Below, in pieces: positions 8,301 through 53,699 of a DNA stretch of 64,000 nucleotides. Made by a program: the position numbers and the translations under genes. The first letter of the stretch is position 1, and every line of letters begins with the position of its first letter. The stretch comes from Prorocentrum cordatum (taxonomy: Eukaryota). The notes beneath the pieces were generated by a model that made no database searches, had not been told where the DNA came from, and was given only the letters and a program-made list of their open reading frames with translations. The stretch spans positions 372,001-436,000 of the forward strand of contig CAUYUJ010000126.1 of the NCBI GenBank assembly GCA_963575745.1. The letters are read 5' to 3'.

Positions 8301-11300
8301 CTAACTCCAGGTATTCGCTTCCGCATTCCACGCCAACTCCCCTCAGCTTCAGATATCCTCTCCGGCTCCAGGAAGTCGCCGTCAACTTCCTCGCCGACCC
8401 CCCTCAGCTTCAGAATCCTCTCTAACTCCAAGAATTCGCTCTCAAATCCCTCGTCGGCCCCCTCGGCGTCAGAATCCTCTCCGGCTCCAGGAATTCGCGC
8501 TCAAATTCCTCGCCGACCCATCTCAGCGCCAGAGCCCGCTCTAACTCCAGGAACTCGATGTCAACATCCTCGCCAAACCCCCCATCAGCTACATAATTCT
8601 CTCTAACTTCAGGAATTCGCTTTCACAGTCCTCGCCAACTCTCTTCAGCCTCAGAATCCTATCTTCGTTCAAGAATCCCTCGCCAGACCTACTCAGCTTC
8701 AGAATCCTCTCTAACCCCAGGAATTCGCATTCATATTCCTCGCAAACTCCCCTCAGCTTCAGGATCCTATCGCCAAGAATTCGCTTTCAAATTCCTCGCC
8801 AGGCCCCCGCCAGCTTCAGGGTCCTCTCTAACTCCAGGAATTCGCTTTCAAATTCCTCGCAAACTCACCTCAACTTCAGAATCCTCTCTAACTCAGGATT
8901 TCGCCTTCGAGTCCCTTGCCAACTCCACTCAACGTCATAAGTCCCCATTGCGGCGACGCTCGACAGCGATGCCACCCAAGAGAGAGGACGGCACCCAATC
9001 GGCGTTGGACGAGGCCGCGGCCGGACGCCCCCCGAGCCGAATTGCCGACCCGCCACGTCGACCGACGCTTGCGGGTGGAGCGTCAGAGCGCCGGCCGCGC
9101 ACATGGGCACCATGCCCCCCATCAAGGGTGGCGGGAGGGAGAAAACGAAACCGCGACCGCGGACGCGTCCGCCGCACTATGGCGAACGGACACGCCGCGC
9201 GCCGCCCCAGAGGTCAACCAAAGCTGCGCTATGGCAAGCAGAGGAGACTCCCTGGGCGGACGCCCTACCCCCAGAGTGCCACTATGGGCAGGTAGGGCGC
9301 CACATGCATGACTGGGTACTTGATATCCCGCCCCGCGGCCAGGCCGCAGAGTGGAGACGACGCGACCGCGCGCGGAGGTGAGGAGAGCAGGAGAGGACCC
9401 CGACGCACGGCCGCGCGGCATGCGAGCAAGCCCGCGGGAGCCAGGCCCGCCCGACGGAACGGCGCGTGGCTGGTGGTCACGCAGCCGCCCGCCGTCGCGC
9501 TCTGCGACGCTGGCGGGGCGCTTCCACCGCCACTGTCGACTTATGACTTGCAATGACAAGTTATTACTGCCCCATAAGTCTCCAATGCGGCGACGCTCGA
9601 CAGCGATGCCACCCAAGAGGGAACGACGGCGCCCAATCAGCGTTGGGCGAGGCCGCGGCCGGACGCACCCCGAGCCGAATTGCCGACCCGCCACGTCGAC
9701 CGACGCTGGCGGGTGGCGCGTCAGGGCGCAGGCCGAAGCACACGGGTAACATACCCATCGCCGCGGTCCTAGGCGCTGAGGCCGACGCGCTGCCCCCGCG
9801 GGCCCGCGACGCCCAGCGGGCCCGCGAGACCCAATTCCAGGCAGGGACACGGACGCAGGACCGCAGCACTAGATGGAGCGGGCGTCGCAGCCCGCGAGCG
9901 AGAGAGCGCGACAGGGACCGGGCGAGACCGAGACCGCGCAGGCCAAACGCTTGGCGTCGCTGGACGCCGCAAGAACTCCTGCCTCTGGCACGTCGTCGCT
10001 GAACGACGCGGCGAAATGCGCTTCGGCGATGGCCTGGTGCTCAAACTTCTCGACGTCAAGATATCGCATCCATGCCGGCATCTGCCAGTCCCCGGCCTTG
10101 AGGAGATCGGTCACACGACCGCCGAATGCGACGATGTCCTGAGCGTGGCCCCTTCTGAACGAGCGGGTACCGTAGGCGTCGGCGTTGCCTATGCCCACGT
10201 GACGCAGCGCTGCGCCGAGCGCATGGCGGACGCTCCTGGCGCGCCAGCCAGCCCGCGGGGCGCCACCTGCGGGCCGAGAATTCAGCCACGCGCCCAAGGC
10301 GTGCACTGGGCACGTGGCGCGAGAACGATTGCACCAGCACTCGCGCACGATCGTCGACCGCCTCTCGCGATTCTTGCGTCTGGCGAGAGAAAGAACGGCG
10401 GTCTCCTCGTCAATGGACAGACCGGCGCGCAGCTGCGAGGCGTCGGTCAGCGAGGCGGCGCGCTGGATGATGAGCGCTTCGGAAGGTAGACGAAGAAGGA
10501 ACGCAAAGGACACGGCGAAAAGCATGCCCAGGCCGCTTCCCGCTGGCAACGCACCCGGGCGTTCCAGCGGCCGCTCAAGCATAGCCAAGCGGATTTCCAT
10601 GCGTGGCCGCGCGGACCATCCTGAGCGCTTCTCGCTGGCCAGCTTCGCCCTGGCCAGTGACGCGCGCGCGATCGCCGCGCCCGACGCCCGCGCGACGTGG
10701 CAGGCTTTCTTGAAGCGAGAAAGATAATTGCAAAACGCTGCCCGACAGCGAGACGTCGTTGACCAGAGAAGGAGGCCGTCAACTGACGGCGGAAGTTCGC
10801 TGCCCCTGGGCTGCAATACTTCCCTCGCGAACCTCGCTCAGCATTCAAAACTGCCGCTGAATTGCGGGATCGACCGAGGGCGCGACCCGACCAGAGCGCT
10901 GATACGAGCCGCCTGCGCCCACGCCCGCCCGCCCCTCCGCGGGCGAGGCGATAGCGGCGCGCGCTCTCGCGATCTCGCTGCGAGGGTCGCCCATCTGGCG
11001 CTCGAAGCCAGACAGCGCTGCCTGAATGGATTGGCGCACGCAAGCAACGGAATCCACGGCTTTGCTGCGGCTGCGCCGTCGTCGGGACCGCGGCCCGGCT
11101 GGCGGTGGTCCCGGACGCGGCGCGGGCCTCGGGCCGCCCTGCGCGCGCGGCAACGAAACCGGCTGCTGCGCGCGGACCGCGTACCGGGCGAAACAACCGC
11201 GGCGACGCGCCGCGCGAGGTGGCCGGGGTCGCGCGCCCCGAGTGCTCGACGACGAAGACTCGGAGCTAGATGACCCACCATACGGGGAGCTGTCCCGGGC

Positions 11301-14300
11301 CGCGCAGCACCGGCGACCCCCGGCCCGGTGGCCTGGCGAACCGCCGCGCGACACCCGGCGTCGAGCCGACCCTGGGCGAACAACCGTCTTCTTCCGCGCA
11401 CGTGGCACGGCCACAAACGGCCCGGTGACCTGCGACGCCGTCGTGGCGACGCCGCATGATGCGCGGGAAAAAAACGAAGCGGGGCGCGGGGTGCCTTCCG
11501 CGAGGGGAACACTGCAATTTCCCTTGACACGTGAGCCACACAGCGACCTCACGGAGTTTGCCATGCGAGACCTGCGCGACCGCTTGCAGCGCGCGCCTCC
11601 GCCCGACTGCGGCAGCAGCTGCCGCTGGGCAGTCCCAGCAGTGGCCGAGAGGTGGGCGCCGCCCAGAAAATCCTCGAACTGCGCGCAATCGAGATGCCGC
11701 ATCGCCCTTATCCCGTTCGACCACAGACAAGAACAAACCGCGACAATCTGATCGCGCGGCACATCGCCCAGCGCTTCGCACAACTGAGCCTCGAGCGTCT
11801 CGCGCGACATACTCAGGGAAAAAGAAAAACGCGCGCCTGGAAGATTCGCTCGCCCGTTACTTGCAATGAGCGCGGGCGTCGCTTTGCCCGGGGCTCAACG
11901 CGCGCCGACGCCGGCGGCGAAGACGGTCAACGCCCCCCTTGCTTGTTCGCGGCCAGTGCGAAGCCGCTCACAAACACGAACCAGCCCGACGCGGCCGAGA
12001 GGGCCGCCGCTCGCGCCTCGCGCCCCCTTGCACGCGCCCCGGGACGCGCGCTGGCGCGCGCCGCTGCGTGCCACAAGGAAGAAACGCAGAAGCACCATTG
12101 AAATTGCGAAGCGCTTCGAACCAGCGCGGGCCCTCCTCGGGCGCGCGGGCGCACCGAAAAAGAAAGCATTGGCCCCGGCTGGGCAGGTCGGCGACGTTGG
12201 CCTCTGCGGGCGCTCGCAAAAACCACGCGTCGGCGTCGAGCGCGGCCAGCCGAAGCCAGACGGCGTGCACCAGGCGCGCGTGATCGAACGCTTTGGCGCC
12301 CGCCCGGCGCAGCGAGCGCTCTGCGCCGACGTTGCCCGAGCAAATGCGGATCGGACGGCCGCGCGCGCGATGCGCGAAAGCTGAAAAGCCGAGGGAAACT
12401 GCGGCAAGCTCCAGCGCCATGATTTGCGCGCCCGAGCGCTTGGCGAGCGCTCCCCAGTTCTTTTGGGGGCGGGGCGTCGACCCAGAACAGGCGGCCGTCA
12501 ATCGGCAGCACGGCCGCCAGGCGTGCCGGATTCGAGGCGGCGTCGGCGAGCAGCACGCACGCGCGACCCCCCTGCGGCGCGACGGAGGGGCGCTACGGGA
12601 TGACGCGCCACATCCGGAGCCTGAACACTTGTAGCCGCCATGACAGAGCAACTAAAAGTTCATCCCCGACGCGGCCGCTGCGGTTGTTCTCCTGAGCGTA
12701 GAGAGGGCGCAACATTGCGCGGCCGAGCCAATTCCACGCGCACTGGCACGTCCACGCGAGCGCACGGGCGAGCTTTGCTGCTTCGCCGGCTGGCAACGAC
12801 CGCGACTCGATCGCGCCGTTGTACCGGGCGCACCACTTCGCAACCTTCTTAGGGCACGGCCACAGCGCATCTTGGCCGGGCGAGCAATGATAGACAATGC
12901 CTAGAACCGTAACGCGCGAGCCACATTCGAGCTTTCCCTCCGCGATTGCCGATTGGCCAAGGATCGCCCGTACCAGGCGCGCAAACGCGCGCATGGAATG
13001 CCCGCGGCGGATTCCCCGCGCCCGGCGCCGAAGAAATCGTCGACATAACGCGCGATCGGTGGACGCAGTTGCAACGCACAGGAATGCCGCGCCCATCCGA
13101 TTCCAACCGTGGACCGATGCCACTGAACCGAACGGCAGTCCGATGCGCGTCGAAATGACCGGGTGCCCGTTGTGCGCGAAGACCGAGGTAGCCACCCATC
13201 GGTCCTCGGGGCGCACTGGCAGGCGCCTGCGCGCTGCATCAATGTCAGCCTTCAAGATCGCGGGACAAACGCCCGCTGCATATTGAAACGCTGTGAGAAG
13301 TGCAATGAAGGTGTCCGCGCCATCGACGCGCAATTTCTCGTTGGTGCAGACGCACGCGTTGGCGCCGCTCCTAGACCAGTCGTCTACGGCGCGGATCTTC
13401 ACGGATCCGTCGGGGCGCTCGCCCAGACGCACGGCGAAGCGCTTCGCCCACCGCCCGCGCGCCTCCTGCCACGGCGCGGGCGCGACTGGCGGGGCCCTGC
13501 GACCGCGCTCCGCATCGGCGCGCGTGAGTGTGCGAAATTCAGCGGACAGCGGATCCTCGCGCAGCGTGCGCAGGACCTCAGCGTTGTGCTCCGGCGCGGT
13601 TCGCCACAAAACATGATCGGACTCTGCGGCTTCCACGCGAAATGGCGCGCCGTCGCCGGTGAACGGCAGCTCGCCCAGAATCGGAAAACCGGCGCGCAAC
13701 GATTCGACCACCGCGGGGTCTGCATGCGTCGCCTCACTCAGAAATTCGGCCAACAATGGGCCGTTCACGTCGAATTCGATGAGCCGGCTGACGGCGCTGT
13801 CGGCTGCGCCGCTGCGCCAACGTTTTCGAGGGGCCAGAGCGCTCGAGCTCGCGCCCCCTGGCCTCGATGCGCGAGATAGTCGCCTCGCGCTCCTGGATCG
13901 CGCGATCCGCGGTCCTCTCGGCTTCCCAGCGGATGGCTTCTTGCAAATCCGGCGCCAACTCGCGCCGCGCGTCAGCGGGCGCGCATGCGGCCCCGCGGGC
14001 GTCGTCCTCGGCCCGCGCCAAGAATTCGACGCAAGTCGCGTCGGCCGCCTCCGTTTTCCCGGCGATAGCTTCCCGCCATGCACCCGGGCGCGGCGGCGGT
14101 GGAGGCGGCGGCGGATGGCGACGCGCGCCGTCCTGGCGAACGCGCGGCATCGCGGACGGCGAGGCTGCGCCGCGCGAACGCGCGCCGCGCCGCGAACGCT
14201 GCCGCCATTGGGGGAAAGCGCGCCCGCCGAGAAACATCGGCAACGTCGCCGCACCGCGCGCGCTTCGCCGACATGGCTAAACTGGCGGCCCCGCCGCCCT

Positions 14301-17300
14301 CTAACCGCGCTGGCGAACGCGCGGACGCGACGCAAGCATGCGCCGTCGCGCGCCTCTGGAGGCGCGCAGCGCGAAGAGAACATGACCGGGCGCGCCTACT
14401 CGCGAAGAATACCGCGCACCGCGACACCCGGGCGCAGCCGGTCACCAAGGGCAAGTGACAACGCACGGGGATATGCATCCCGGAACCGCGCGCTGCGTGG
14501 TTCGCCCGCTCGATTTGTTGCTCGTCGCGGCTTCGCACGACCTGCGCAAGCCGTCATTGCCGGTTGCTGCCCGGCCTATACTGGTCGCGGAGGTGTCTGG
14601 GGCCCGCGCGCCCCGTCGGACGGGGCGCGAAGGCCGCGACCGCGGACGCGTCCGCCGCGCGATGGCGAACGGACGCGCCGCGCGTCGCCCCAGAGGTCAA
14701 CCAAAGCTGCGCCTTGGCAAGCAGAGGAGACACCCTGGGCGGACGCCCTACCCCCAGAGTGCCACGATGGGCAGGTAGGGCGCCACATGCATGACCGGGT
14801 ACTTGATATCCCGCCCCGCGGCCAGGCGGCAGAGTGGAGACGACGCGACCGCGCGCGGAGGTGAGGAGAGCAGGAGAGGACCCCGACGCACGGCCGCGCG
14901 GCATGCGAGCAAGCCCGCGCGGGAGCCAGGCCCGCCCGACGGAACGGCGCGTGGCGGGTGGTCACGCAGCCGCCCGCCGTCGCGCTATGCGACGCCGGCG
15001 GGGCGCTTCCCCCGCCACTGTCGATTTATGACTTGCAATAAAAAGATGTTAGTGCCCCATAATCCTCCCGAACACCAAAAAGTCGCGTTCAAATTGCTCG
15101 CCGACCCCCCTCAGCTTGAGAGTCTTCTTAAATTCCAGGAATTCGCTTTCAAATTCCTCGCCAACTACCCTCTGCTTCAGTATCCAATCGAACTCACGGA
15201 GTTCGCATTCAAATTCCTCGTCAACTCTCCTCAGCTTCAGAGTCCTCTCTAAGTCAAGGAGTTCGCTTTCGAATTCCTCGCCGACCCCCCTCAGCGTCAG
15301 AATCTATGATAATTCCTGGAATTCGCCTCCAAATCCCTCGCCAACTCCCCTCAGCTTAAGAATCACCTCTAACCCGAGGAATTCGCTTTCAAATTCCTCG
15401 CCAACTCCCCTCAGCTTCACATTCCTCTCTAACCTGGCATGTATACGTTACAGACGTATGTCATGTTTGTCTATTTCCACGAGTGCATGGAACGTTTGAT
15501 ATATTTCCGCGCGGGACGCTTAGACCACCGCCCACAGAGAATTCGCAATATTGAACTATACGTCTTCATGTTTTCTCACATGTTCACACGGTTTCCGAAT
15601 TAACCACATGTTTTGGGATATCTACCCTCGCGGAATGCCAGAAGCTCCCGCAGCAAAATTATGGAACCACAGACATGTGAAATGCATCGCTTCATGTGTT
15701 TTATAAATGTCAGATGCTTATTATATGCTTCGATATCTGTCCTCGCGGAATGCCAGGGACCCCCGCCGCAACAACATGAAACAACAACTTGAATCTACGT
15801 GTGTTGGAATGTTCTCGTGATGTGTTGATGTTATGGTGTTGCTATTGTTTGCTACTCTCCCTCTCGGGATGCCACAACTTCCACCAACCAAAACTTTAAA
15901 CAATATCGGAAACATGTGTTGTCACTACGTGTTGTGTTTCAATATGTGTTGCTAGTGTTTGCTATTGTGTGATGTCTTTCCTTTCGGCATGCCAGAAGCT
16001 CCGCCGACCCAAAATATATGACAATAGTTTACACTATACATGTTGCACAGTTGTTTGTTGTTGCTAGATACGTGTGATATTTCTGATGCGTGGAAACCGC
16101 TGTAAACATATGATTGCCTATGTTTTGGTATTTTTCATGATTGTTGAAATAATTGATATTTGTTCGGTCTGCCATAGGCTCCGCCAACCAAATGATCAGC
16201 ATAGCTTGAAGTATATGTTTATCGTGTATATATATGGGTTTATTGACCATGTGTTGCTAACTTTGTTTATTGTGATCATGAGTCGCTTCGTGTGATGCCC
16301 GGAATTTCGCGCGCCAAAGAAATTCCATTGTTGGAGCCTGCTGTCTGAGGCCCGGAGATTATGACCCTTCCCCCTGCATCTCCAGACTCCCTCTGATCCT
16401 CCTGAGCCAATCTCAAATCTGACAGCATGCAGCAGGTCACAAGCAAACAACTCCACCCTCTCCCCCTCATCCTCCTTGTCATCATCCTCCACAGGCTCCG
16501 AGTTGGGGTTTTATTCAACCAATAGGTATTCCCCTTCAACCCCTAAGGACTGTCTGATGAAGTTCCGCCCGCTTGTATACCTGGACGATGGGTCACTCAT
16601 CCTGCGCGATCATCAAAAAATTGGAGAGTGTTACTTCGATCCAGCACAAAGCAGGGGGGGAGGGGGGGGGGGCAATCAGAGCGAGATCTCTTCGTCACCT
16701 CGCTTGGGCTGCGATCCACCCGGGCCCCCTGACAGGGCCCCCTTCCACAGAACTGTCACCAAGCCTGAGCGCCAGGCCAGAGTCACGAGGTCCCTGGGGC
16801 GCCAGGGCACCGTCAACAAAATTCAAACTGTGCCCTGCTGATATTTCCCATATTCTCGTCATCCTCCTCGTCCTCCTCCTCGACATCTAATCCTCGTGCT
16901 CCTCATCCCCACCCGTGTCACCTCGGAGGGCAGTGAGTGGGGGGGCGCGCGCGCCTCTTTCGGCCTCCGATGGTGGTGCCGTTGAGCCTCGGCGGCCAGC
17001 ATGACGAAGACAGCGTCAATGTCAGAGGCAAGAACGGCTGAACAGCGACAGCAACGAAAAGCAGCGAGGGACACGTATCATATATGTATATATATATATA
17101 CATTCTTATGACGAGAGAGATAGAGGAAACAAAACAAAAGAGGCGGAGATATTCATGAGGACGTCATGCCATCAACAGTTCAACACTGCTTCCTTATACA
17201 CTTACGTCAATGCATCCATACATACATGCATACATACAGACAGTCAGACATGTATACATACACGTACACACATACACACATACACACATACACACATACA

Positions 17301-20300: not shown

Positions 20301-23300
20301 AGTGCCGGGAGCGCACTGGGGGCCGGAGCATTACTTTCTGGGGGCGTTCTGGCCAAAGCAATAAAGAAACACGCTAAGGATGGCCCAAGACAGCCCAAGA
20401 GACTCAAAAGACGTCCCCAAGACATCCTCCACGAGGGCCCGAAAAAGCAAAAATTACTGGTTTTCAGGAGGTGTTTGAAGAATTTGGGCATTTGCTTCTT
20501 TTCGGCCTCCCGACAGCCCAAGACGGCCCAAGAGGCCCCCGAGATCGCCCCAAGATTTCCCCAAAGGCCTCCAAGATGACCATGGCCCAAGAAGCCTTCT
20601 CCTCCACGGCCCAGGCACGGTTGTGAGCTGGGCCTATGACCACTGGACCCGCCACCCCTTTCTGCCTGCAAAGTGGTGCACGGCGTGCCGAATCTGCACC
20701 TAGACAGACCTTCCTTTGAAACCTTCCAAACGGACCCCGAATGACTCCGGCTCAACCCGCAAGCCACCCGGAACCATGCGTTAAACCGGCTCGCATCGCC
20801 TTTCCCGCCCGAGATGGCCCCAAAACGGCCATATTGGCCCCATATGGCCTCCATGACGGTGCCAAGACGCCTCCAGGAAGGCCAAGGTGAACCCCAAGGA
20901 GGGCCCACGATGCCACAAAGACGGCCAAAAATGACTCCAACACCACGCGAATGACTGTATGAAATAAACTTGTCCGTCGCCGGGGGCGCTGCCCCAAGGC
21001 GCCTGTAAAGTTTGTACCTTGACGCGCCACCGTGTAAGGGTGTAAGCTTCCCAGCCGCCCTGGAACAGGCGCCCCCGGCAGCGAACAAATACATTGTATA
21101 CCTTTCTTCGCCCATGAAATCACGGCACAAGATGCCCTCCAGATGGCCCGCAAGGAGCTCCAAGAGGGCCCAAGACGAACCTCCAGGCGGGGTGGCGCTG
21201 TGGGGCGGCAGGGGGCGCCGTGTCGGCAGTGCACAACGCATACTGGACGCGGCACGACAGGGCTCCCCTCGGATGCAAAGCAGTTGACTGGTGTAGAACG
21301 CATGGTACCGAATGGTCCTCCTCCTCCTCCTCCTCCTCCTCCTCCCTCCCTCCCTTCCTTCTCCTATTCCGAGAGAGAGAGAGAGAGAAACAGAGAGAGA
21401 GAGAGACAACAAAAAACTCCGACGGTAGGACCCCGCATGTGAATATGTTTAACTTGCCTGGGGATCTCCTCCTCCTGCCCCTCCCTCTCCCACCTACTCC
21501 TGCCTCCTCCTTCTCCTCCTGCCTGCTCCTCCTCCTGCCTCAACCCCTGCCTCCTCCTCCTCCCCCCCACTCCATCATCGACACTGGCCCTCAGAAGACT
21601 CATCCTTTCCTCCTCCTCCTCCTCCTCCTCCTCCTCCTCCTCCTCCTCCTCCTCCTCTTTGTTCCCTATCCCTCTCCCTCCTCCTCCTCCTCCTCTGCCT
21701 CCTCCTCCTCCTCCTCCACTTCTCCTGTAAAGGAACTCCTCCAAGTCGCACCCCGAAGCCACTTTTTAGGGCGGGCGGGGCGTTTCGCCTGAGACTTTCT
21801 CAACACGTATGACTCTGAAGCTTAGCTTAACAAGCGACAACGGTTTCACAGATGGAGGGCGGGTGGTGTTCAAAATGAGGCTCACGCCTTAGCACCGCGC
21901 ACATTCGTTTTAAACCTCTGCCAGAATTTCACGGATTGAGGGCGGGTAATTTTCGATATGTGGTTCTCGCCTTAGCGCCGCGCGCGTTCGCTTTAAACAT
22001 TTGCAAGAGCTTCACGGATTGAGGGCGGGCGGTTTTCAAAATGTGGCTCTCGCCTCAGCGCCGCGCACGTTCGCTTTAAATACTTGCAAGAGCTTCACGG
22101 ATTGAGGGCGGGTCATTTTCAAAATGCGGCTCTCGCCTTAGCGCCGCGCGCATTCGCTTCAAACATTTGCAAGAGTGTCACGGATTGAGGGCGGGTCGTT
22201 TTCAAAATGTGGCTCTCGCCGTAGCGCCGCGCACATTCGTTTTAGCATGTGCAAGAGTGTCACGGATTGAGGGCGGGTCGTTTCCAAAAAGTTGCTCTCG
22301 CCGTAGCGCCGCGCACATTCGTTTTCAAACTTTGCAGGAGTGTCCCAGATTCCCTAGATCAGCGTACAACAAATTGTGTTTGAGAAGGATTCAGGATTAT
22401 GCGGGTGCAACAATTATTTTGACTCGCGGTGCTGAAGTCCCAGAATTGGCCCTCTTGCACGACTCCAGATCGTCAAGACGAAAAAGTCAGCTTGATACGT
22501 GGCGTTGAAATCCCGAGAACAGTTTGCTGGCATGCTTCAGGATCTTCAACCAGTTGTCTTCCAGTTCCGCTACTGGAAATGAACCATTGTGGGGGCCCGT
22601 GGAGAGGAAGCTTGAAGGGAGGGTTACTTCCAACATCGTTCATGACTCTTGGTTTTACACTGGTCCTCCTCCAACTCCTCCTGCTGCCTCCTCCTTATGC
22701 CTCCTGCCTCCTCCTGAGGCCTCCTGGGGCCATCTGGAGCCATCTGGGCCTCCCGGGACCTCGTGGGGCCTCCTAGGGCATTCCTCCTCCTCCTCATCAT
22801 CCTCCTCCTCATCCTCCTTCTCCTCCTCCTCCTCCTCCTCTCCTCCTCATCGTCCTGTTCCCCCTCTGCCTCCGCCTCCTCTTCCTCCTTCTCTTTCTCG
22901 TCCTGCATCCTCCTCCTCCTCCTCCGACCTCCTCCTCCTCCTCCTCCTCCTCCCTCCTCTTCCTTCCTCCTTCCCCCATCCTCCCCCTCCCCCTCCTACC
23001 CGCGCTCCTCCCCTCCCCCTCCACCCCTCCTCCTCTCCTCCCCCTCCCCCTTCCCTCCCCCTCCCCCTCGCCCCTCCCCCCCCCCCTCCGCCCTCCGCCC
23101 CTCCCCGGCCCTCCCCGGCCCCTCCCCCGCCCCTGCCTCCATCCCGTCCCCTCCCCCTCCCCCGGCTCCTTCCCCTTCCTCCTCCTCCAGCCTCCTCTCC
23201 TCCCCCGCCTCCTCCTCCTCCTCCTCCTCCTCCTCCCTCCTCCTCCTCCTCCTCCCTCTCCTCCTCCTCCTCCTCCTCCTCCTCCCCTCCTCCTCCTCCT

Positions 23301-26300
23301 CCTCCTCCTCCTCCTCCTCCTCCCTCCACCTCCTCCGCTCCTCCTCCTCTCCCCTCCTCCTCCTTCCTCCTTCCTCCTCCTCCCTCCCTCCTCCTCCTCC
23401 TCCTCCTCCTCCCCTCCTCCTCCTCCTCCTCCTCCTCCTCCTCCTCTCCTCCTCCTCCCGCCTCCTCCTCCTCCTCCTCCTCCTCCTCCGTCCTCCTCTC
23501 CCCCTCCCCCTCCCCGCTCCCCCTCCCCCTCCCCTCCCCCTCCTCCTCCTCCTCCTCCTCCTCCTCCTCCTCCTCCCTCTCCTCCTCCTCCTCCTCCTCC
23601 TCCTCCTCCACCTTCCTCCCTCACCTCCTCCTCCTCCTCGCCTCCTCCTCCTCCTCCCCTCCTCCTCTCCTCCTCTCCTCCGCCCCCCCGCCTCCTCCCC
23701 CTCCTCCTCACGCCTCCTCATCTCTTCTCCTCCTCCTCCTCCTCCTCCTCCTCCTCCTCCTCCCCCTCCTCCTCCTTAGTCAGCATCATCTTTGGTCGTT
23801 GTAAGGCACCCGTGCATCCTTCTGTACCCGTGAGGGGTTCGGGTCCTTACTTGGAAGGCCTCGATGTTGGGATTTGCGCCTCCGGGCCCTTCCTGGAAGA
23901 CCCAGAAGCACCCATCTTCCTCGATCCAAATAAACTTACAGCACCCCTAACTCCCTTGGTTACAGCGACGAGCGTGGGCTGGGGCGAACCTCATCCCCCA
24001 GCCACGCCGAGGAGGATGAGATTGGGACAACCCCGTCGATTCACGGTATCCCAGCAGCGAGAGCGATCCCCGAGCAGGAGTCCCCCCCCAAACGCGCAGA
24101 GAGGAGTAGTAAGGTTGTCGCAGTAGTTGCCAGGTTGGTAGTGCGCAAGCCATAAGTTATACCGAAGGACAATACAATGCGGTTGTGATGTGATGCTATG
24201 CGACCCGCATTCCAGCCTTCCAGCCCTTATGCCCTATGGCCTATAGGGCGGTCCTCCTCGAGGGCAGGCGTATGGGACACGCAGTCCCAGCTATGGGCCA
24301 TGGGACACACGGCCCTGATAAATTTAATGGGACGCACAGTCCCTGTTAGGGGACACACAGCCCTGGCAAATGGGACGCGCAATCCTGGCAAATGGGACGC
24401 GCAGTCTCGATTATGGGACACACAGATTCGGTTGATGGGACACGCAGTTCCCGCGCATTGGAGGATGTCCCATGCAAGTATGGAAGAGGCGTCTCTTGCC
24501 TGGTATTGCGTTATCTGGTCTCCTCCTCCTACTGCTCCTCTTCCTCCTCCTATTCCTCCTCCTCCTGCTTCTGGCCCCGTCCCCCAGCCACGTCCTGGAG
24601 GGGTAGCCAGGTAGGTTCATGCTTTGACATCTAGATTGGCCGAAAACGGTCCTCCAGCGTTGCGCTTGATCGAAGGGGGGGCAATCTTGTTAACATCTAG
24701 CTTGGCCGAAAACGATCGCCCAGCATTGCGTTTGAGTAGGTTAGCTCGCTCTGAAACAGTCATCCCACGAAGTGGGATAAATCATGCGCAGCCTCATTAG
24801 GACTGAGAGCGTCGCGATGGGGGTGCGGGAGTTATTGTGAAGAGTGTTCCGTAGCTGCTCGGTTCCCTCCTCCTCCCCTTCGCCCTTCCCCTATTCCTTC
24901 ACCTCCTCCTCCTTCTGGCCCCGTCTCCCAGCCACGTCCTGGAGGGGTAGCCAGGTAGGTTCATGCTTTGACATGTTGATAGTTCGCAGACCATTCTAGG
25001 CCGTAACAGGCCTGGGGTTTGAGCAGTAGCACGCGGGCCAGAGGTGGCCGCATCAGGCATGGGGGTGGGGGGCTTACCAGCCACCGTACAAAGGGCCCGC
25101 GTGTAGGCCATGGGTGGCCATAGGCCGTGCAGTGGAGGGCATTGGCGCGAGTGGTGCACAGTATGGGCGTGGTAGTAGGCGCATCTGAGTAAGTGTTGCA
25201 GCCATGGGAGTACGGGGATTGGCACGGGGCAGCTAAGTGTGCTTCACAGTCGTGGTGCGGCCCTCCTCCGGGAAGAGGCCAGGCAATTGTAAACCATCCT
25301 GCTTCACAGCCGTGGGGGGACCTTACTCGTGCATTCCAGGTTACATCCCACTTGAATCAGCATTGCATATCAAACAACATGCACCACGCAATGTAACATG
25401 ATTCAGGGTTGCAGATAATTCAGTGCGTTCTGATGTTTGAATCGGATTTGCAATTGAACATAGCATGCCACCATTGTTAGGGCACGAAGCGGTTGAAGAA
25501 GGGGCGGGTACCGCCACGGTTGTTCACACGTGATCGGATAGGGTATCGCGTATCGAGTGAATGATCATCCATGGCGATCGTGCGCCTAGCGCCTGTACAG
25601 CGTAGGTCCACCACTGCTGCGGTGCCCCTTGGTTGGTTAGAGCATGCGGACGGTGTTGAAAGTGTTTGGGGGGATTACGTCATGAGGCTACGCTTAACAA
25701 AATGGGGTCCCCCCTGCTCGAAAGGGGGGGAACTTTGCTAACATCTAGATTGGCCGAAAACGGTCCTCCAGCGTTGCGCTTGATCGAAGGGGGGGGCAAT
25801 CTTGTTAACATCTAGCTTGGCCGAAAACGATCGCCCAGCATTGCGTTTGAGTAGGTTAGCTATGAAACAGTCATCCCACGAAGTGGGATAAATCATGCGC
25901 AGCCTCATTAGGACTGAGAGCGTCGCGATGGGGGTGCGGGAGTTATTGTGAAGAGTGTTCCGTAGCTGCTCGGTTCCCTCCTCCTCCCCTTCGCCCTTCC
26001 CCTATTCCTTCACCTCCTCCTCCTTCTGGCCCCGTCTCCCAGCCACGTCCTGGAGGGGTAGCCAGGAAGGTTCATGCTTTGACATGTTGATAGTTCGCAG
26101 ACCATTCTAGGCCGTAACAGGCCTGGGGTTTGTCCAGTAGCACGCGGGCCAGAAAAGGCCGCATCAGGCATGGGGGCGGGGGGCTTACCAGCCACCGTAC
26201 AAAGGGCCCGCGTGTAGGCCATGGGTGGCCATAGGCCGTGCAGTGGAGGGCATTGGCGCGAGTGGTGCACAGTATAGGCGTGGTAGTAGGCGCATCTGAA

Positions 26301-44174: not shown

Positions 44175-44400
44175 GACGCCCCAGATCACCTAGGAGCGAA
44201 ATGCCCCCAGCCAGACGCGGGGCGAAATGCTCCAGGGGGGCGGAGTGCCCCAGATCATACAGGGGCGAAATGCTCGAGTCAGATACGGGGCGAAATGCTT
44301 CTTCAAGGGGCGCAATGCCCCAGATCCCGCAGGGGCGAAATGCTCCAGATCACGCGGGGGCGAAATTCTCCAGCCAGATACACGGCGAAATGCTCAAGGA
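44175..44400. repeat. Short ~30-bp repeat array (cagat...ggggcgaaatgctc), possibly subterminal to the 44-54 kb block
   Basis: About 8 copies of gcgaaatgc-like cores. Confidence 0.75.
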
Positions 44401-45039
44401 AGCGTAAAACTCAAACCAGTCGGAGGCGAAACAATCCCAGGCCAACGAGGGACCTCCAGGGGAGCACAGCACGACCGTTTGATCCATATCCTGGTCCTTT
44501 TTCCGCTTCCGCGGTTCGTTCCTCTGTCGTGCTCCGCCCCCTCTTCTTGTCTTCCTCTCTCCGTCGCCCCCGCCTGCTCGCCCCTCCTTCCTCGCCCGCG
44601 TTTTTTTTTTGGCGTTGCAGCCCATTATGGCCCGAGCCTGCCTCGACGCAGAACTCGCGGCGCAGCTTCCACGCGCCCGCGCGGCAGCAATGCCGATGAT
44701 GTTCCACCTCGCCCCCTGGTGCGCCGCCAAGGCGCAGCCCCCCTTCCTCGACAAACACAACGCCGACGGCGGTTCAGCGGGGCGCGGTGTGCGACGGGGT
44801 AATCGGTGTCGCGCCCCGTTTCAACCTGGAGGCTCTCGTGACCTCCAGAACTGCCTCCACTCCTTACCCCGCGAGCGGTTCCACTGGGCCTGCGACAAAC
44901 AAGACTTCGACGCCCAGGTGGTCCGCGAGATCGGCGGGGACGCGCGGAGCATGGCCACGGACGCTCCTGCGGCGCGGGCAGCGAGGCTCCTGCAACCAAA
45001 AACAACAGCACACGCACACACCAAACACTAAACAACAAA

Positions 45040-47900
45040 CGTGACAGAGAACCACGAGCTCAAAGAAGCAGCCGCGCTTGATGAAACAACGTACGTTGTT
45101 ACCGCCCTCCACGTTTTTCTGGCCGCGACGCCTAGGATTCCTTCGACAAAACGGACCCTGCCGCAACCGACGCGCGCATCCCCGCCGCCGCCAGCCCGGG
45201 CGAGAGCCGCGAACTCAATGAAACAGCCGTACTTGATGGGGGAAAAAACATCGCCACTACCCCCCGTGTGAAAAGTGTCGCGGGACTGTAGATTCCTTCG
45301 GAAAAATAGCCACCGCCGCAACCGACGCGCGCGCCCCGACCATCAGAGGCCCGAGCGAAAGCCAAGAGCTCAATGAAGCAGCCGTGCTTGATGGAAAACC
45401 AAAAAAACGTCGTCACCGCCCTCCCTGTTTCTCTGGCCGCGACACCTTGGATTCCTTCGACAGAAAGGCCGCTGCCGCAATCGACGCGCGCCTCCCGACC
45501 GCCGGCGACCCGAACGAGAGCCGCGAGTAAAGCAGCCGTGCTTGCTGAAAGAAACACATCGTTACCGCCCTCTTTGTTTTTTTGGCCGCGATGCCCTGGA
45601 ATCCTTGGGCAAAACGGACCACGGCCGCAACCGACGCGCGCGCCCGCGCCGCCAGAGACCCGAACGAAAGCCACGAGCTCAATAAAGCAGCCGTGTTTGA
45701 TGAAAAAAACACATCGTTACTGCCCTCCGTGCATTCGTAGGCGCGAGACTGTGGATTCCTTCGGCGGAAACGGCCGCGGCCGCAACCGACGCGCGCACCC
45801 CGACCGCCAGGGGCCCGAACGACAGCCACCAGCTCAATGAAGCAGCCGTGCTTGATTTAAAAACGTACATTGTTACCTCTCCTTGTTTCTCTGGCCGCGA
45901 CACCTTGGATTCTTTGGGCAGAAAGGCCGCTGCCGCAATCGACGCGCGCCCCCCGACCTCCGGCGACCCGAACGAGAGCCACGAGCTCACTAAAGCAACC
46001 GTGCTTGGTTGGAAAAAATAACATCGTTACCGCCCCCCTTGTTTTTCTGGCCGCGATATTTCGGATTCCTTACGCAAAACGGACTACTGCCGCAACCGGC
46101 GCGCGCGGCTCGACCGCCAGAGACCTCCTGCAAACGACAACAGCGCGCACACACCAACACAAACCACAACAACATAAACTGCGAGGCTCTTGCATCTCGC
46201 CATCCAGACAACTGCGCTGCACGGGTCCGCAAAAGGTCGGCTTCTTCTCGGTGGATGGCACCAATATGTCCTACTGCCACATCGGGGGCGTATCCATCCA
46301 GTCGCGGCGCAAGTCGGCGCTCGCGGGAAACTACGCGCGTTCTTTCATCACCCGAGAACGCCACGTCCGCATCGCCGCGGAGTCAGGCGAGGTGATGGGC
46401 CCGAAACAGGCGTCGCTTTACTCTGGCGTGAACAAGGCTGGCCAAGATCTGGAGCGCTCCGTGGCCCACGCCGACTACGGCGTCGTCCCATGTAGCCCCC
46501 GTGGCGTCAATATATGTTGTTATGACGACATCACTGACGACGCCCCGTACGACGCCATGAAGTCCGCGCCCGCGCGGGCAGATTCCGACGCGCAGGCCGC
46601 GGCCGAGCACGCGATCGAGCGCGCGAAGAGGCGCGGCGCGCCTGAGCCCAACGACGTCTCGATCGCAATCGGCGCCGTCGGGGCTTGGCGACAGGGCGAA
46701 TGTCATCAAGAATGCCTTCCTCACCCTCCTTGTCTTCCACCTCCTCCATCGCCCCCGCCCCCACCTCGCTCTCGCCCTCGTCATCGCCCTCCCCTGCCCC
46801 ATCCTCCTCCTCCTCGCCCTCCTCGCCCCCCCCCTCCCTCCGCCCCCGTCGACCTCCTGTCCTTCCACCTGAAGATGCAAGGGCCAATGCCGCGGACCGC
46901 GCGTGCATCTCGACCGCCAGGGGCCCGAGCGAGAGCCACGAGCTCAATGACGCAGCCGTGATTGATGAAAACACACATCGTCACCGCTCCCCGCGCTACT
47001 CTGGCCGCGACACCTTGGATTCCTTACGCAGAAAGGCCGCTGCCGCAACCGACGCGCGCCTCCCGACCGCCAGAGACCCGAACGAGAGCCACGAACTCAA
47101 TGAAACAACCGTGCTCGATGAAACCCACACGCACATCGTTACCGCCCTCCTTGTTTTTCTGGCCGCGACACCTTGGACTCCTCGCGCAAACGGACCGCTG
47201 CCGCAACCGACGCGCGCGCCCACCGCCAGCGACCCGAACGAGAGCCACGAGCTCAATAAAGCAGCCGTGCTCGATGGACACATCGTTACCGCCCTCCGTG
47301 TCTCTCTGGCCGCGACACCTTGGAACCCTTGCGCAAACTGATCACTGCCGCAACCGACGCGTTCATCCCGACCGCCAGAGACTCGAACGAGAGCCACGAG
47401 CTCAATCGCGCAGCCGTGCTTGATGAAAAAAACACATCGTCACCGCCCTCCGTGTCTCTCTGGCCGCGACACCTTGGATTCCCCGCGCAAGCGGACCACT
47501 GCCGTCACCGACGCGCGCGCCCCCACCGCCGGCGACCCGAACGAGAGCCACGAGCTCAATAAAGCAGCCGTGGTTATTCTTTTGAAGAAAAAACGTCACC
47601 GCGGCGCTTCTTGTTTTTCTGGCCGCGACACCTTGGAACCCTTGCGCAAACTGACCACTGCCGCAACCGACGCGTGCATCCCGACCGCCAGAGACCCGAA
47701 CGAGAGCCACGAGCTCAATCGAGCAGCCGTGCTTGATGAAAACACACACACACACATACACACACACACACACACCGTCACCGCCCTCCGTGTCTTTCTG
47801 GCCGCGACACCATGGAATCCTTAAGCAAATCGCCCACCGCCGCAACCGGCACTTTTGCCGCGACCGCTTGAGGTCCTGAAGAGACCCGCCGGCGAAATCG
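45040..47900. repeat. Two arrays of a ~120-bp tandem repeat (45040-46130 and 46890-47900) separated by a coding-like segment
   Basis: Unit gagccacgagctcaat.aagcagccgtgcttgatg..acacatcg.taccgccctcc..ctggccgcgacaccttgga..gccgcaaccgacgcgcgc. Confidence 0.9.
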
Positions 47901-47972
47901 AGCAGCCGTAGCTGCTCAGAAACATGCTGTAGCAGCCGGACGCGCCGCGGGATCCTGGGCTCCGACAGACGC

Positions 47973-47988
47973 GCCATTTTGGCTCAAG
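47973..47988 (+). other. Relict spliced leader upstream of the helicase ORF
   Basis: GCCATTTTGGCTCAAG, an exact match to the 3' 16 nt of the dinoflagellate SL, ~70 nt before ATG 48057. Confidence 0.85.
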
Positions 47989-48056
47989 GCGTCTGTCGCT
48001 CCTGCGGGCAACAGGCGCGCTGACGTTAACGCCCTCCCCTGCAAGGCTTCCAAGCG

Positions 48057-50453
48057 ATGGCCGCCCGCGGCGTTGTCGCCGACGCTGCCAACGTGCCCGC
48101 CCAAGAAATGAAGTCGCTCGGCGTCCACGCGCGCGTCGAGGCCATGACGAGCGACGTGCTCGCTGCGTCGTGGGGCAGGGCGAAGGGCTTGGAGAAGGCG
48201 ACCCCCCTTGGCAAATCGAAGACCGATGGCAGTCTCGACCGCAAAGGCTCGGTCGACGTTAACGACCTGCCCGTCCAGCCATGGAACGCTCGCCGCAACG
48301 GGCCCCTGAAGTCCGTTGTCGACATCGTCACTGACGTCGGCGCCGCCGAGATGGCCGCTGTGGACTGGACTAAGATCAAAGACATTATCGCGGGAAGCAA
48401 GTACAAGGAATTTCCGCCGCCCCGAGGCAGAGCCCCCATGCACGACGAATCTTGCCGTCGCGCAGAGGGTCGCAGACGGACTCCCGATCATCGCGAAGTG
48501 GATTCAATTCGTTGGCGGCGAGAAGTGCACGTTTTGGACTGGCGCGAGGACGTGCTCAACTCTCCTCGCGCGATGCAGATTATCTTCGAACGCCTCGGTG
48601 GTGTCCAAGCGCGATGCCGGGACTTCGCGAGCGCACCCGCGCCCAGAGCTGGCGGCGGCGACGTCGACGTCAATCAGACGAAGCAGGAGCTCGCGGAGGG
48701 CATCCACAACATAATGAAAGAAGCCCCACGCACAAATGCCGACTGCGAACAGCTGGAGTGGGTTGAGTGCGAGCTGGTGGATCCTGTGTCGCCAATTCAC
48801 GACCTGAGGCGGGAGCTCATCAACGCGGTCCTCATGGTGCTGCGGGGCCGCGCCCACTCCGCCAACAAGCTGGAGTACTACCCCGTCCTACTCCCAGATG
48901 TCCGCGACGAGTACCAGGGCGCCATGCGGCGCGCCATGGAGACGCTGGACGCCAACGCCGCCCTGTGCGCGGGCGAGGCCGGCTTCGGCAAAACGCCATT
49001 CATGATGGCGATGGCCATGGCCAGCGACAGGCGCAACCCCGACCCTGAGAGCAGGGCGACTGGCCGCGCCGACGCGGCGGCCGCCGCGCGGGCAGCTCCG
49101 GGCATGGATGTTCTCCGCGGTGAAGTCGGACAGCGCTGGGCCCCTTGCATCTTCGACGACGGTGACCTGGCGGAGCAGAGGCCGAAGGTGTTGAAAACAT
49201 TCGTCGGCCCCACTCAGGCGGAGGCCTTGACGTACGTCAGGTGGGGGGCGGCGCGATTCGCTCGCGGGCAGGCTCGCTGCGGCGGGGAGAACGGATGCGA
49301 CGCCAGTGCAGCGCCGACAGCTACGCAGTGGACGCTGGCATCCACGGGCGCCGACGCCGCCCAGAAGACGACCGCCATCTTGACCGACGTGCCCAAGCCG
49401 ACGTTCCCGAATAACTTCTCGCCGAGCAATGTCGGCGCAATGCTGAAACGCAGCGCCGCATTCTAGAACGCCCCGGCCGACGCGTTCTTCAGGCTCGCTT
49501 GCGCCCGGAGCGGCGCAGAAAAAGCTCCCGTTGATGGGCGGGCACCTCAGGCCCGAGGCGGGCACGACGCCGCGCCCCCCCTGGCCCGCGGGGCCACGCG
49601 CGACGAGGAGGAGTTCGACAGGGTCGTGGCACACGAGAAGAAGATGGCCATGGATATCATGGCTACGCGCGGCGTCGAGCACGGCGCGGCGCCCCCGCGG
49701 GGGCCGCGGGCCCGCCCAGCGGGGGGGCCCGCGCGAGCGCTGCCGCGCCGCCGCCGCCGAGCTCGGCCGGGCGGATCGTTCTGGGCGACCAAGAAAGCCG
49801 CGCGATTGAACGTGCAGGCCGCCCCCCCATGGCGCCCCCGCGCCTGCGTCCAAAATCCGCATCTGCACCGCGCCCCCGCCCCCGTTCGTTTTGCTGCCCC
49901 CTGGCGCCGTTCCCCCGCGTCGCTTTTTCGCCCCAAGGGATTCGGGGCGGCGGCGGCTTGCGCGCCCATCCGCCTGGCTCGAGGGCGAGGGGGGCCCGTT
50001 CGGCTTTGGCGGCCCCATGAACGGCGAGCAAGCGGAGGCGCCCGATTAAGCGGGGGCCTTCCGAGATCCCCAGCCACAACTTGCGCCAGAGCGGCCCCGT
50101 CGAGTTGGACGTCTGCAGCCCCTCCCCGTTGAAGAATTCGAAGCTCGAGTCGGGCGCCCCCCCCGCTGAAGGAGGCGAAGCTCGAGCCGGGCTCCGGCGA
50201 CGTGGCGGGGCAGGGCGAGTTCGGGAAGAAGCCGCCGAAGCCGCGCAAGCTCTCCCTGGCCCTGGGGGGCATCGTGGCTCGCGAGCTGGAAGGCGCGGCG
50301 GGGCTCTCGCCAGACTCTGACGTCGCGGCGGAGCAAGGCGCCGCGTCTCTCACCCAGTCCCTGGAGGAGGTCGTGGATCGGGAGCTGAGCCGCGCGGCGG
50401 GCCGCGGCGGCCCGTCGAGCAGCGGCGGCGGCGACGGCGCGGACTCGGGCTGA
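48057..50453 (+). pseudogene. Superfamily 3 (AAA+) helicase/ATPase-like gene resembling the CRESS-virus Rep helicase domain, degenerate (stop at 49464, frameshifts downstream)
   Basis: Walker A GEAGFGKT, Walker B CIFDD, a B'-like KTF...YVRWG segment, motif C-like N (GGEN) and Arg-finger-like GAMLKR. Coding-like sequence continues to ~50453. Confidence 0.7.
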
Positions 50454-51233
50454 GCGGCGTTCGCTGGACGCGTTGCCCGCCGCGGGGGCGGGCGGCGCTG
50501 GGAGCGGAGAGGGGCGGGCCGCCGGGCGCGTAGATGGGGGGTGGGCTGGGAGAGTCGCGTTGTAATTTCATTGCCAATGTGGCGCATTGGGGCGGGGCTG
50601 ACAGCCATGCTACCGTGGGGAAAGAAGACGCGCGCAGAAGCTTATCACCTTGACATCCATGCCAGTTGTCGCATATCGCTGGATGGATGCACGTAGCACG
50701 CGATGCCGCCAGGGCGGTTGTCTCTCACTCCCGGTCGCGCGGTCGCGGCGAGATTGGCTCGACGCCTGCGATCGCGCGCCCTCGGCGCCGCCCTAAACGC
50801 TCAACATGATTGACGACCAATTGGTCGAGTGAGATGGCCGCCCACGGCGATGCCCGACGCGATCGCCAACGCCTCCAAAAGCAGAACGAAGCGGGCGTCG
50901 ACTCTCTGCGTACCATCGCGAGTGATGCTCGCTGAAGTACCAGGCCTTCCAGGAGTTGCTGCCCCTGTGGCGGGCGCGTTCTCTGCTGTGCGACGAAATC
51001 CGCGCGCGCGTCGCCTCCTTCCTGGTTCTCGTCGAGCCGTCGCGGGCGTAGATTCCACCAGCGGCGCTGGCCCGCGCGGACAACGACCCTGCGTCGCCGC
51101 GCGTCTGCTGCTTAGCGAGCACGACCCGCAGGGCTCCGACCAACCGATCGGCGGCCGAGGCCATGAGCGGGGAGCGCAGAGAGAGAAATCTATATATATA
51201 TAGAGAGAGAGAAGGGGAGACAAAAAGAGGAGA

Positions 51234-51273
<40 letters not shown>

Positions 51274-51314
51274 AAGAATATATATATATATATATAAGAC
51301 AGAGAGAGAGAGAG

Positions 51315-51353
<39 letters not shown>

Positions 51354-52427
51354 AGAGAGAAAGAGAGAAAGCGAGGGAGAGAAAGGCGTGGAAAGGGGAT
51401 GAAGGGCAGGGCGCGAGCGATAGTGAGCCGACGCACCAGTCAGAGACTCCCCCACTGGATGCGCCCCGCCGCGTCGGCGGCCGGCTTCCCCGCCGACGCC
51501 GCGCCCGCCTCGCAGGAGGGCGCCCAGCCGCGGGCCAAGTGGCGCCTGATGGAGACGCAGATGTTTTGCATCTGCGACGAACTGGAGGACCCGCTCGCGG
51601 AAAGCGCAGCCTGATCGGCTGCCGATCAACCGGTCGATCGACGCCGTCCGAGCGCTGCCTGATCGCCCGTGCCCGCAGGGCGCTCGAGCGGGCATCGACA
51701 GCGCCAGATCCATCTGCCGCGGTCGATCGAGAGGCCCGTCGGGGCTTGCCCCTGAGGACGTCAGGTCGAAAATGGCGACGCTCGACGATGCCATCGAAAT
51801 CCTGAGCAACACGCGGTCGCGGGCGACGCGGGCGCGAGCCGGGCGCCATTGCTCTCCGCGGATGCGGCGCGGTTTGGGCGGAGGGCGAGGCGGGGGCGGG
51901 GACGCGGGCACGGGCGTGTAGATGGGGAGGGGCGCAGAGATTCGCATTTCAATGTCATAACAAATGCCAGGCATTGGGGGCGGGTTTAACGACCAGCAGT
52001 CACGGCGCCCCACGCCGATCGCGCGCGGCGTGCTGAAACGCTTCGCGCAATCGTCATCTCCGCCGTCTGCACTGCCGCCGTCGCCATTGCCATCGCCTTC
52101 TAGTCATCCGCCGCTGCTGACAGGGTCATCGCCGATTGGGGACAGGGCGTCTGGAAGGAGGGGCCTGGACGGGCGTTTCGGCATCGGGCCCCATCGCCGA
52201 CCTGTCGGCGATGCGTCGCCGAGCCCGCTTCGTCTTTTCCGTGAATCCAGGGCGCAGTTCTGCAGGTCGAGCAACTAGCTTTCGTTGGCGCATTGATCTC
52301 CGTGTGTCGGGGCGCCCGATCTATGCCAGACCTGCGCGCTGCGCATGAACGGCCAAGAGCATTAGCGCGCCCGGGGACAAGGCGCGCCTGCCCGCCCCTG
52401 GCCAGGGTCGCCGGCCAGCGCCGCGCC

Positions 52428-53699
52428 ATGGCGACACGGCGCGGCTTCCCCGCGCCTAGCCGAGGCAAGGCGCGCGCCGCCCTGAAGACGGGGAAGACGA
52501 AGCGGAAAGCACCGAAGCACGCGGGGAAGACATTGGCGAAGAAGCCGGCGTCGAACCAGAGCGCGAGGGAGGCGCCCCACGTGCGGCGCGGCAAGAACTT
52601 GCACATCCAGACTGGAGCGCGCTGCTTCCAAGAGGAACGCGTTCGAATTCATTCGCGCAAATGGCCGCGAGATCGTCGACATGTGGCTCGAGGGCCAAGT
52701 CTTGGAGAAATTGGGAGGCCAGACGTGATCCTTCTGCGAGAAAGGAATCCTCGGCCCCCTGAAGGACGTCCTGGACCGCGGACCTCGGCGCCGCTGCAAT
52801 CGCAGGGCCTGCCACAAGTTCTTCTTGCCCCAGAGCGGGCGCGTGGTCTTCAGCAGCGGCTCTGGCGCTGCCGCGGTGCCCTTGCAGGAACAGTCCGCCG
52901 TGCTGTTCGCCGTCGCGAACGACGCGCCCCTCGCCAAGATCCGCGCGCCCACGGGCAAGAACCACAGGGCGATCGAGGGCGTGGGAAAGTTCAATGATGC
53001 GCGCCGAAAAATGACGCGCTGCAAAAGAAGAAGCTGGTTACTCTTGGAGGAAAGGGGCGGATGAGGTCGACGCCGATGAGGTCGACCTCAGGGGCGAACG
53101 ACCTCTTGACCACGCGGAGCGAGCTGAGAACGAGCGGGTCCAGCGGGAGCAGTGGGGCGGTGCCATCGAGAGAGGCAACCGCAAGACATTGGTTCTGACG
53201 CGCCTCAAGCCAAGTCTCACCAAGCAGAGGGCGCCAGGCCCACGGGGCGATGCGCTTGCCAGATTGGACGCCGCTCGCTCACAAGAACTTGATCAACGGG
53301 AGCGTTGTACTCCGCGCGGGCGGGGCAGAAACGCACGAGGCCAAGGTCGAAAGGATGCTCCGCGACCACGTCGCGCACCCGAGGAAGCGGCTCATGAAGA
53401 ATGGCAAGCCCGTGGAGAAGAACGGCCGCCAGGTGCGGGTGAAACCCACGCACGCCAAGAAGTTGCAACCTGAACTTCCTGGCGGACGAATCCTCTAGCG
53501 CAAGGGTGGGACCCAGATCATCGACAGGTTATGGCAGCACTTGCGCGGCTTCATCAAGACCAGAAAGAGTTCGGTGGGCTCGATGTCATTGAACGCCAGG
53601 GTCCGATACGCCCAGTGGGCGTACTGGCACGTAAACGAGGACCTGTCGCTGGAGACTGACAAGATGCTCGGCCGCCTGAGGGGGAATGACACCGCGTAG
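52428..53699 (+). pseudogene. Merlin / IS1595 (ISXO2)-type DDE transposase, degenerate
   Basis: Stitched frames give a basic N-terminus, a Zn-ribbon remnant (T*SFC...RCNRRAC), VDADE, WGGAIERG, VVLRAGG (inferred from LHTDG), HVAH, GTQIIDRLWQHLR and RVRYAQWAYW. Confidence 0.75.

Follow-up and report, generated by a model that had tools for sequence, protein, structure and literature searches.

GC-ward decay of dead mobile elements in a Prorocentrum cordatum contig and a GTG>GCG hotspot in their genes

Does a dead mobile element in a GC-rich dinoflagellate genome lose its A:T pairs to G:C, opposite to the usual AT-biased decay, and if so, is a directional mutator acting on silenced repeats responsible? 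This question was raised by the initial annotation of a 64,000 nucleotide stretch of Prorocentrum cordatum DNA (assembly GCA_963575745.1, contig CAUYUJ010000126.1, positions 372,001 to 436,000), hereafter the window. It holds a dead Ngaro/DIRS-like tyrosine-recombinase (YR) retroelement and a dead transposase which we take to be of the Merlin/IS1595 family, along with spliced-leader (SL) relics, satellites and long simple repeats, features which point to nuclear DNA. The GC content of the whole window is 60.7% (0.607), and the available text of a published study gives 59.7% for one GC-rich dinoflagellate genome (PMC10666404). In our study, the GC-ward decay has been confirmed and a narrow GTG>GCG (CAC>CGC) hotspot has been located which, in this window, is specific to the dead element genes; the interpretation proposed by the initial annotation is partly supported.

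The retroelement (8936-15068, minus strand, 6.1 kb) sits in a 60-bp satellite which flanks it on both sides (7230-8931 and 15083-15433), the left array flipping its orientation near 7700. Ngaro/PAT-type YR retroelements are defined by YR, reverse transcriptase (RT) and RNase H together with split direct repeats in the order A1-genes-B1-A2-B2. The same order was found here, with A1 at 14634-15068, B1 at 9573-9756, A2 at 9151-9583 and B2 at 8936-9117 (94.5% identity between the A repeats and 89.7% between the B repeats), and all three proteins are represented through homologues, the relatives matching RVT_1 below the cut-off. The open reading frame (ORF) at 9872-10930 (-), which carries one stop, had no match in a Pfam search and is presumably YR on account of its motif; the RT and RNase H region (12154-13819, -) is frameshifted. 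The transposase is located at 52400-53696 on the plus strand. A Pfam search of its broken frames gave no DDE match, and its homologues contain the conserved LHTDG motif expected of Merlin.

The drift had been noticed at hand-picked sites; all of these motifs are present, and the ancestral residues proposed for them are borne out by relatives. The YR motif reading RSFRRG has the codon CGC at 10163-10165 (-), where 14 of 15 aligned relatives have His and one distant relative has Arg. In RNase H, the Gly of SGN (GGC, 12334-12336) stands in place of an Asp found in 10/10 homologues covering the site, and the Ala of RAP (GCG, 12211-12213) in place of a Val found in 9/9. The transposase motif LRAGG (53310-53324) lies where the homologues have H (35/37), T (32/37) and D (36/37), and a fourth change, Y>H, is present near it (Y in 36/37). 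Further, the oldest, i.e. the third, of the SL relics described below (33975-33989, -) shows A>G, T>C and T>C against the leader sequence which we assumed as reference, and the first relic shows one T>G change. It is the ancestral residues, not the derived ones, that are carried by the family consensus.

To remove the hand-picking, every residue conserved in the relatives was considered, the nearest ancestral codon was deduced and the changes were divided by the opportunities, i.e. the amino-acid-changing sites. Unanimous columns of four relatives (73-79% identity) were used for YR and columns conserved to at least 80% for the transposase; multi-step codons, the frameshifted RT segment 12904-13089, P0016 and P0017 were excluded. 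Pooled over YR, transposase and RT/RNase H, T>C/A>G changes were found at 34/370 opportunities as against 12/602 for C>T/G>A (p=5e-7). Hence, the drift from A/T to G/C in the decayed elements holds for unpicked sites, and the polarised spectra are dominated per site by T>C, being neither symmetric nor dominated by C>T. In YR, 40 of the 248 residues conserved in the four relatives are altered, with 16/190 for T>C/A>G, 6.3/304 for C>T/G>A and 1-2% for every transversion class, and the corresponding transition counts in the transposase are 11/64 and 2/98. A>G and T>C occur 8 times each on the coding strand of YR, so both strands are affected and the effect lies at the DNA level; that of the transposase has 8 A>G and 3 T>C. 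T>C changes make up 16 of the 38 single-step changes in YR, which does not amount to a dense, near-exclusive mutation class. Among transversions, T>G (5.8/280) and C>A (4/497) gave p=0.18, the satellite counts being 62/2787 and 65/4682. The deeply conserved YR sites alone (T>C 5/75, C>T 3/116) are too few.

Half of the T>C changes fall at GTG or its complement CAC (14/32 in YR and transposase, as against 13/222 elsewhere). With RT/RNase H included, GTG>GCG was found at 17/43 sites and other T>C at 17/327 (p=3e-9), and the reverse change GCG>GTG at 1/100. In the dead element genes, the T of GTG (or A of CAC) was therefore changed to C (or G) at about 8 times the rate of other T's, and on both strands, since the 17 changes, read along the coding strand, comprise 9 A>G and 8 T>C. 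The excess is found in YR (8/21 and 8/169, p=4e-5) as well as in the transposase (6/11 and 5/53, p=0.002), and it is repeated in the held-out RT/RNase H region (3/11 and 4/105, p=0.018). When the sites of the initial annotation were omitted, it stayed at 7/20 against 8/169 in YR and 4/9 against 4/52 in the transposase.

The hotspot is absent from duplicated DNA of other kinds. The controls were the 60-bp satellite, an 83-bp satellite (21843-22341), 155-bp repeats (45047-47830), 89/90-bp satellite arrays (54334-62815) and an 868-bp duplication of 94.7% identity (24627-26603); five transitional 90-bp units and one weak unit, a 160-bp repeat and a 51-bp repeat were excluded from the satellite counts. 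In satellites of similar divergence, GTG changed at 27/510 sites (5.3%) and TpC/TpT at 91/1516 (6.0%), the 155-bp repeats had only 3/46 GTG>GCG changes despite lying inside a CGCG-rich zone, and the control duplications gave 3/39 against 31/450 (GTG/GCG differences of 1/30 against 11/300 in the 868-bp duplication). Therefore, duplicated DNA as such is not targeted. Direction, sequence context, strand symmetry and restriction to one class of DNA are thus all seen within this window.

The base composition points the same way. The GCG/GTG ratio is 6.1 in the retroelement, 3.8 in the transposase, 6.0 in a Rep-like gene (47974-50450, +) and 7.0 at 50.5-52.3 kb, as against 1.9 in two GC-matched non-element stretches (pooled counts 1517/259 in the element zones and 251/133 in the controls). 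The second CGCG-rich zone (44600-53700), made up of the 155-bp repeats, the Rep-like ORF, DNA without label and the transposase, ranges from 2.7 to 7.0 across its segments. In a homologous segment, the dead copy has 152/23 (6.6) and a near-intact relative, L001, has 120/35 (3.4), whereas HCG/HTG is unchanged (1.9 and 2.2). The CGCG saturation ascribed to these elements stood in part: CGCG in 9150-15030 and in 44600-53700 amounts to about 2-2.5 times what the mononucleotide composition predicts, whereas relative to the dinucleotide expectation the factor is only 1.1-1.2. CGCG as a pure decay product was rejected, as L001 is CGCG-rich as well (27 CGCG per kb, CpG observed/expected 1.31), and the richness is partly an inherited family trait.

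Along with the hotspot there is a modest bias which acts on active and dead DNA alike. In the repeats examined here, the per-site rate of change from A:T to G:C was about 1.6-3.5 times that from G:C to A:T. Satellite copies compared with their consensus gave T>C 178/2787 and C>T 165/4682, and on trees 179/6816 and 181/11192, the copies not being independent of one another; the implied equilibrium GC (GC*) of 0.61-0.64 is close to that of the window, two sets giving only 0.54. Satellite singletons alone are symmetric (T>C 25/2671, C>T 43/4634) and speak against a strong bias; these counts were set aside as the filter removes recurrent sites. In 17 close recombinase relatives from other assemblies, T>C was 21/191 and C>T 10/294, a difference which may owe something to selection in favour of mild changes. 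Between the window copy and L001, the fourfold sites are balanced (24:21). The contigs of the X1 run differ from the element by 165 A>G/T>C and 178 C>T/G>A (element bases 1698 A/T and 3813 G/C); the 31 multi-contig rows among the 40 listed of 532, with 9 single-contig edge rows left out, include 11 that imply T>C in the window, 3 of them at GTG, and 8 that imply C>T. A search of sequencing runs gave one DNA run with a small share and no RNA run among the matches listed.

The bias depends on the host, as seen from the distant recombinase locus L002 and the distant cluster 10, where C>T (12.3/321) is above T>C (7/326); cluster 7 has four events and zero T>C. L002 itself has 46% GC and a CpG observed/expected of 0.59. 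In the satellites, C at CpG is spared, with C>T at 21/1234 as against 125/2433 at CpC/CpT. T>C in the pooled satellites peaks at TpA (28/219, about 2-fold excess), and C>T is low where a purine follows and high where a pyrimidine follows. Because of the general bias, A/T-rich codons once held by selection drift to G/C after the death of the copy. As it is also present in satellites and near-intact relatives, it is not confined to silenced repeats, and the high GC, which the proposed mutator was meant to help explain, needs no repeat-specific mutator; the drift in its broad form is nothing unusual for this genome. What stands of the directional mutator on silenced repeats is the narrow hotspot in the dead element genes.

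A number of observations weigh against the hotspot as read above. The trinucleotide was picked, as one of 16 contexts, after YR and Merlin had been viewed, and the hotspot has been polarised in two elements only. When L001 codons were taken as the ancestral context, it was weakened to 5/19 against 10/143 (p=0.018), and the synonymous sites of L001 (29 C, 10 T) resemble the overall 207/82. The 17 close relatives from other assemblies have no hotspot (1/20 against 18/164). The terminal repeats of the element itself gave 3/16 against 9/123 (p=0.14), and they differ at 27/544 positions, i.e. about 2.5% per copy as compared to about 7% in YR, so that part of the change in YR may predate the insertion. 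Moreover, a LINE (long interspersed nuclear element)-like element at 28.4-31.3 kb shows no GCG enrichment.

Several explanations compete for these data. Ordinary genome-wide drift to the host GC, by mutation bias or CpG-favouring GC-biased gene conversion (gBGC), would reduce the GTG excess to a neighbour effect, enlarged by low counts and by the inference of ancestral codons. It agrees with the match between satellite GC* and window GC, the symmetric fourfold sites, the X1 contigs and the element bias of only 2.7-fold without GTG, and the accessible parts of a honeybee study describe a transition- and CpG-favouring fixation bias (PMC4406589); we nevertheless hold it to be unlikely, as the satellites and duplications lack the GTG excess, GC-matched non-element DNA has a GCG/GTG of 1.9 as against about 6, and the held-out RT/RNase H region repeats the excess. 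Alternatively, modified bases on transposons, 5-hydroxymethyluracil (hmU) in GTG or methylcytosine in CAC, may have been miscalled by a long-read base-caller and survived polishing in the repeats. The hotspot lies where such modifications are expected, and it is seen only in the copies of this assembly and not in the 17 close relatives from other assemblies. On the other hand, the general T>C bias is present in those assemblies too (21/191 against 10/294), and in one distant cluster 5/10 T>C-class changes are of the hotspot-compatible kinds V>A, H>R, C>R or W>R against 0.16 expected (p=0.014; 3/6 and 0/7 in the others). The terminal repeats, moreover, keep 13 GTG sites in both copies and differ at 3, where a 40% error per copy predicts more. 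A sequencing or assembly artefact is held to be improbable.

A host ADAT/TadA-like adenine deaminase editing the A of YAC (CAC>CGC, TAC>TGC) in foreign or silenced DNA would be related to the hypermutation of Bigelowiella natans, with which the present changes share transition class and strand symmetry (10.64898/2026.01.13.699255). Early TadA-derived editors favour YAC according to the available text of PMC12703980, GTA/GCA differs at 7/10 sites between L001 and the window (unpolarised), the element genes have a TpA observed/expected of 0.23-0.34 and the Rep-like gene one of 0.31, and four changes fall inside eight transposase codons. Whereas Bigelowiella targets TpA only, polarised changes here were found at 1/7 GTA and, in YR and Merlin, 1/17 TpA opportunities, and TpA was rejected as the main target in the element genes. 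TpA is equally low (0.33) in non-element DNA at 36-38 kb, and the sparing of CpG is left unexplained. We rate the deaminase as slightly more improbable than the artefact. A>G RNA editing or RT error fixed at retroposition could be suggested by the SL relics, which show mRNA recycling, and by the 8 A>G against 3 T>C on the Merlin coding strand. YR is, however, even at 8:8, the 17 GTG changes are split almost equally between the strands, and Merlin is a DNA transposon whose conserved sites are His-rich; RNA-level editing was rejected on strand symmetry, and this origin is highly improbable.

In dinoflagellates, much of the thymine is replaced by hmU and most CpG is methylated, and mammalian non-CG methylation prefers CAC. 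As the best explanation we tentatively favour, at somewhat less than an even chance, a repair which, in marked elements, resolves T:G or hmU:G mispairs in favour of C and acts over the general bias. A repair bias resolving T:G mispairs towards C:G would be the simplest single cause, and a genome with near-universal CG methylation would need such repair to reverse the deamination of 5-methylcytosine. If a G is wrongly placed across from T or hmU at TpG, such repair would take out the T that was there first and establish a new CpG, and this would account for both the protected and the gained CpG. CH methylation and hmU on transposons could restrict the strong effect to these elements, and the outcome would be a slow 'reverse CpG decay' with no burst like that of repeat-induced point mutation (RIP). 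According to the available parts of the respective reports, CG methylation is about 64-70% in other dinoflagellates and CH methylation and hmU are enriched on transposons including Ngaro in Amphidinium and Symbiodinium (PMC5890265; PMC11572971), TDG removes a T or hmU paired with G (PMC3488261) and T:G pairs originate during replication (PMC12073362). Against the repair bias, which we infer as the cause, stand the low C>T at CpA in the satellites (19/1015), which CpG-specific repair would not predict, and the occurrence of hmU without sequence preference described for Breviolum in the accessible text of PMC11071213. The preference for a 5' G is explained by no mechanism considered here. hmU as the cause is not demonstrated by these data. 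A bolder version, which we consider unlikely though well short of negligible, is a mutator guided by a chromatin mark (hmU or methyl-CH) that would turn CAC/GTG into CGC/GCG in silenced transposons and virus-derived DNA, as a genome defence opposite to RIP and CpG decay. If true, it would destroy His, Val, Trp and Cys codons, make new methylatable CpG and be an effect of the dinoflagellate 'fifth base' on mutation.

The likeness to a reverse RIP, put forward earlier, holds for direction and context but not for strength, the effect touching about 40% of one trinucleotide and about 7% of the amino-acid-changing sites. As in fungal RIP, context-dependent transitions fall on repeats and destroy catalytic codons; unlike RIP, the direction is opposite, the density is far lower, tandem repeats and duplications are untargeted, and transversions and C>T are plentiful. 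With methyl-CpG decay the hotspot shares one short context standing far above the rest and changing by transition, and it forms the mirror image, in that CpG is gained from TpG and its loss is suppressed. In the parts of the window examined, CpG is spared and not lost despite heavy dinoflagellate CpG methylation. In honeybee gBGC, as given in the available text of PMC4406589, weak-to-strong transitions are likewise favoured and CpG is created and protected, with an observed/expected ratio above 1; gBGC there is genome-wide and recombination-linked, whereas the strong effect here is found in the element genes, is absent from satellites of the same zone and needs a 5' G.

The closest parallel concerns Bigelowiella natans, in which TpA-directed A:T>G:C hypermutation of integrated viral DNA has been proposed as a RIP-like defence (10.64898/2026.01.13.699255). 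In both cases T>C/A>G changes affect both strands in a fixed context and appear concentrated on selfish or foreign DNA, the hotspot here lying in two transposons and the LINE-like element showing no GCG enrichment. Bigelowiella differs in being restricted to TpA, about 1000-fold over an AT-biased background and known from mutation-accumulation lines, whereas here the context is GTG/CAC, the excess is about 8-fold over other T>C, the background is GC-biased and the pattern is deduced from two dead elements. If real, the hotspot would add to Bigelowiella a second example of selfish DNA being targeted by A:T>G:C changes, with a new context; should it be an error of base-calling, it warns that long-read dinoflagellate assemblies show falsely dead transposons. 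The dinoflagellate Ngaro/DIRS-like retroelements described in the accessible parts of PMC5890265 and PMC11572971 share YR, RT, RNase H and split direct repeats with ours, and this class is reported to carry high hmU in Amphidinium carterae; they differ from our element, in which a Pfam search detected no DNA methyltransferase (DNMT) domain. A literature search covering few subscription journals found no paper on the decay spectrum of dinoflagellate transposons. The signature defined here, GTG>GCG on element genes with CpG protected in satellites, can be looked for by plain counting in genomes and modification maps that already exist, and the GTG>GCG hotspot is the part which deserves a genome-wide count and a read-level check.

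Among the other features of the window, the Rep-like gene (47974-50450, +) begins with a perfect 15-base SL relic, followed by an ORF at 48057-49463, the neighbours of which in a language model are Rep/SF3 helicases from CRESS viruses and from plasmids; the named matches have high similarity scores and serve as a lead only. It is possibly a virus-derived gene that was trans-spliced and then retro-copied. No close homologue that could polarise its changes was found. Searches of viral and genome collections for loci related to YR, Merlin or the Rep-like ORF were negative, and 15 pattern matches were rejected as short chance matches. The LINE-like element (28400-31300, -) has a weak RVT_1 match and a GCG/GTG of 1.3, and with no homologue at E<=1e-30 its changes are not polarisable; it has an open frame of 723 codons, its RT site reads VVDD and its end resembles RNase H.

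Three SL relics are stacked at 33975-34025 (-), and behind them lies a gene-like region (32300-34025, -) split over several frames. A possible degenerate SL relic with three mismatches follows an AG at 44622-44636 (+), at the start of the second CGCG-rich zone. The GCG-rich stretches at 300-2000 (GCG/GTG 3.1) and 50500-52300 (7.0) are perhaps more element relics. The direct duplication of 868 bp (24525-26603) looks nearly identical in its first part and is diverged in its last part, which suggests partial conversion or a collapsed join. The 89/90-bp satellite of 54334-62815 falls into three or more subfamilies; it contains inversions as well as higher-order repeats, and tracts of (ATG)n and (CCT)n are interspersed in it.

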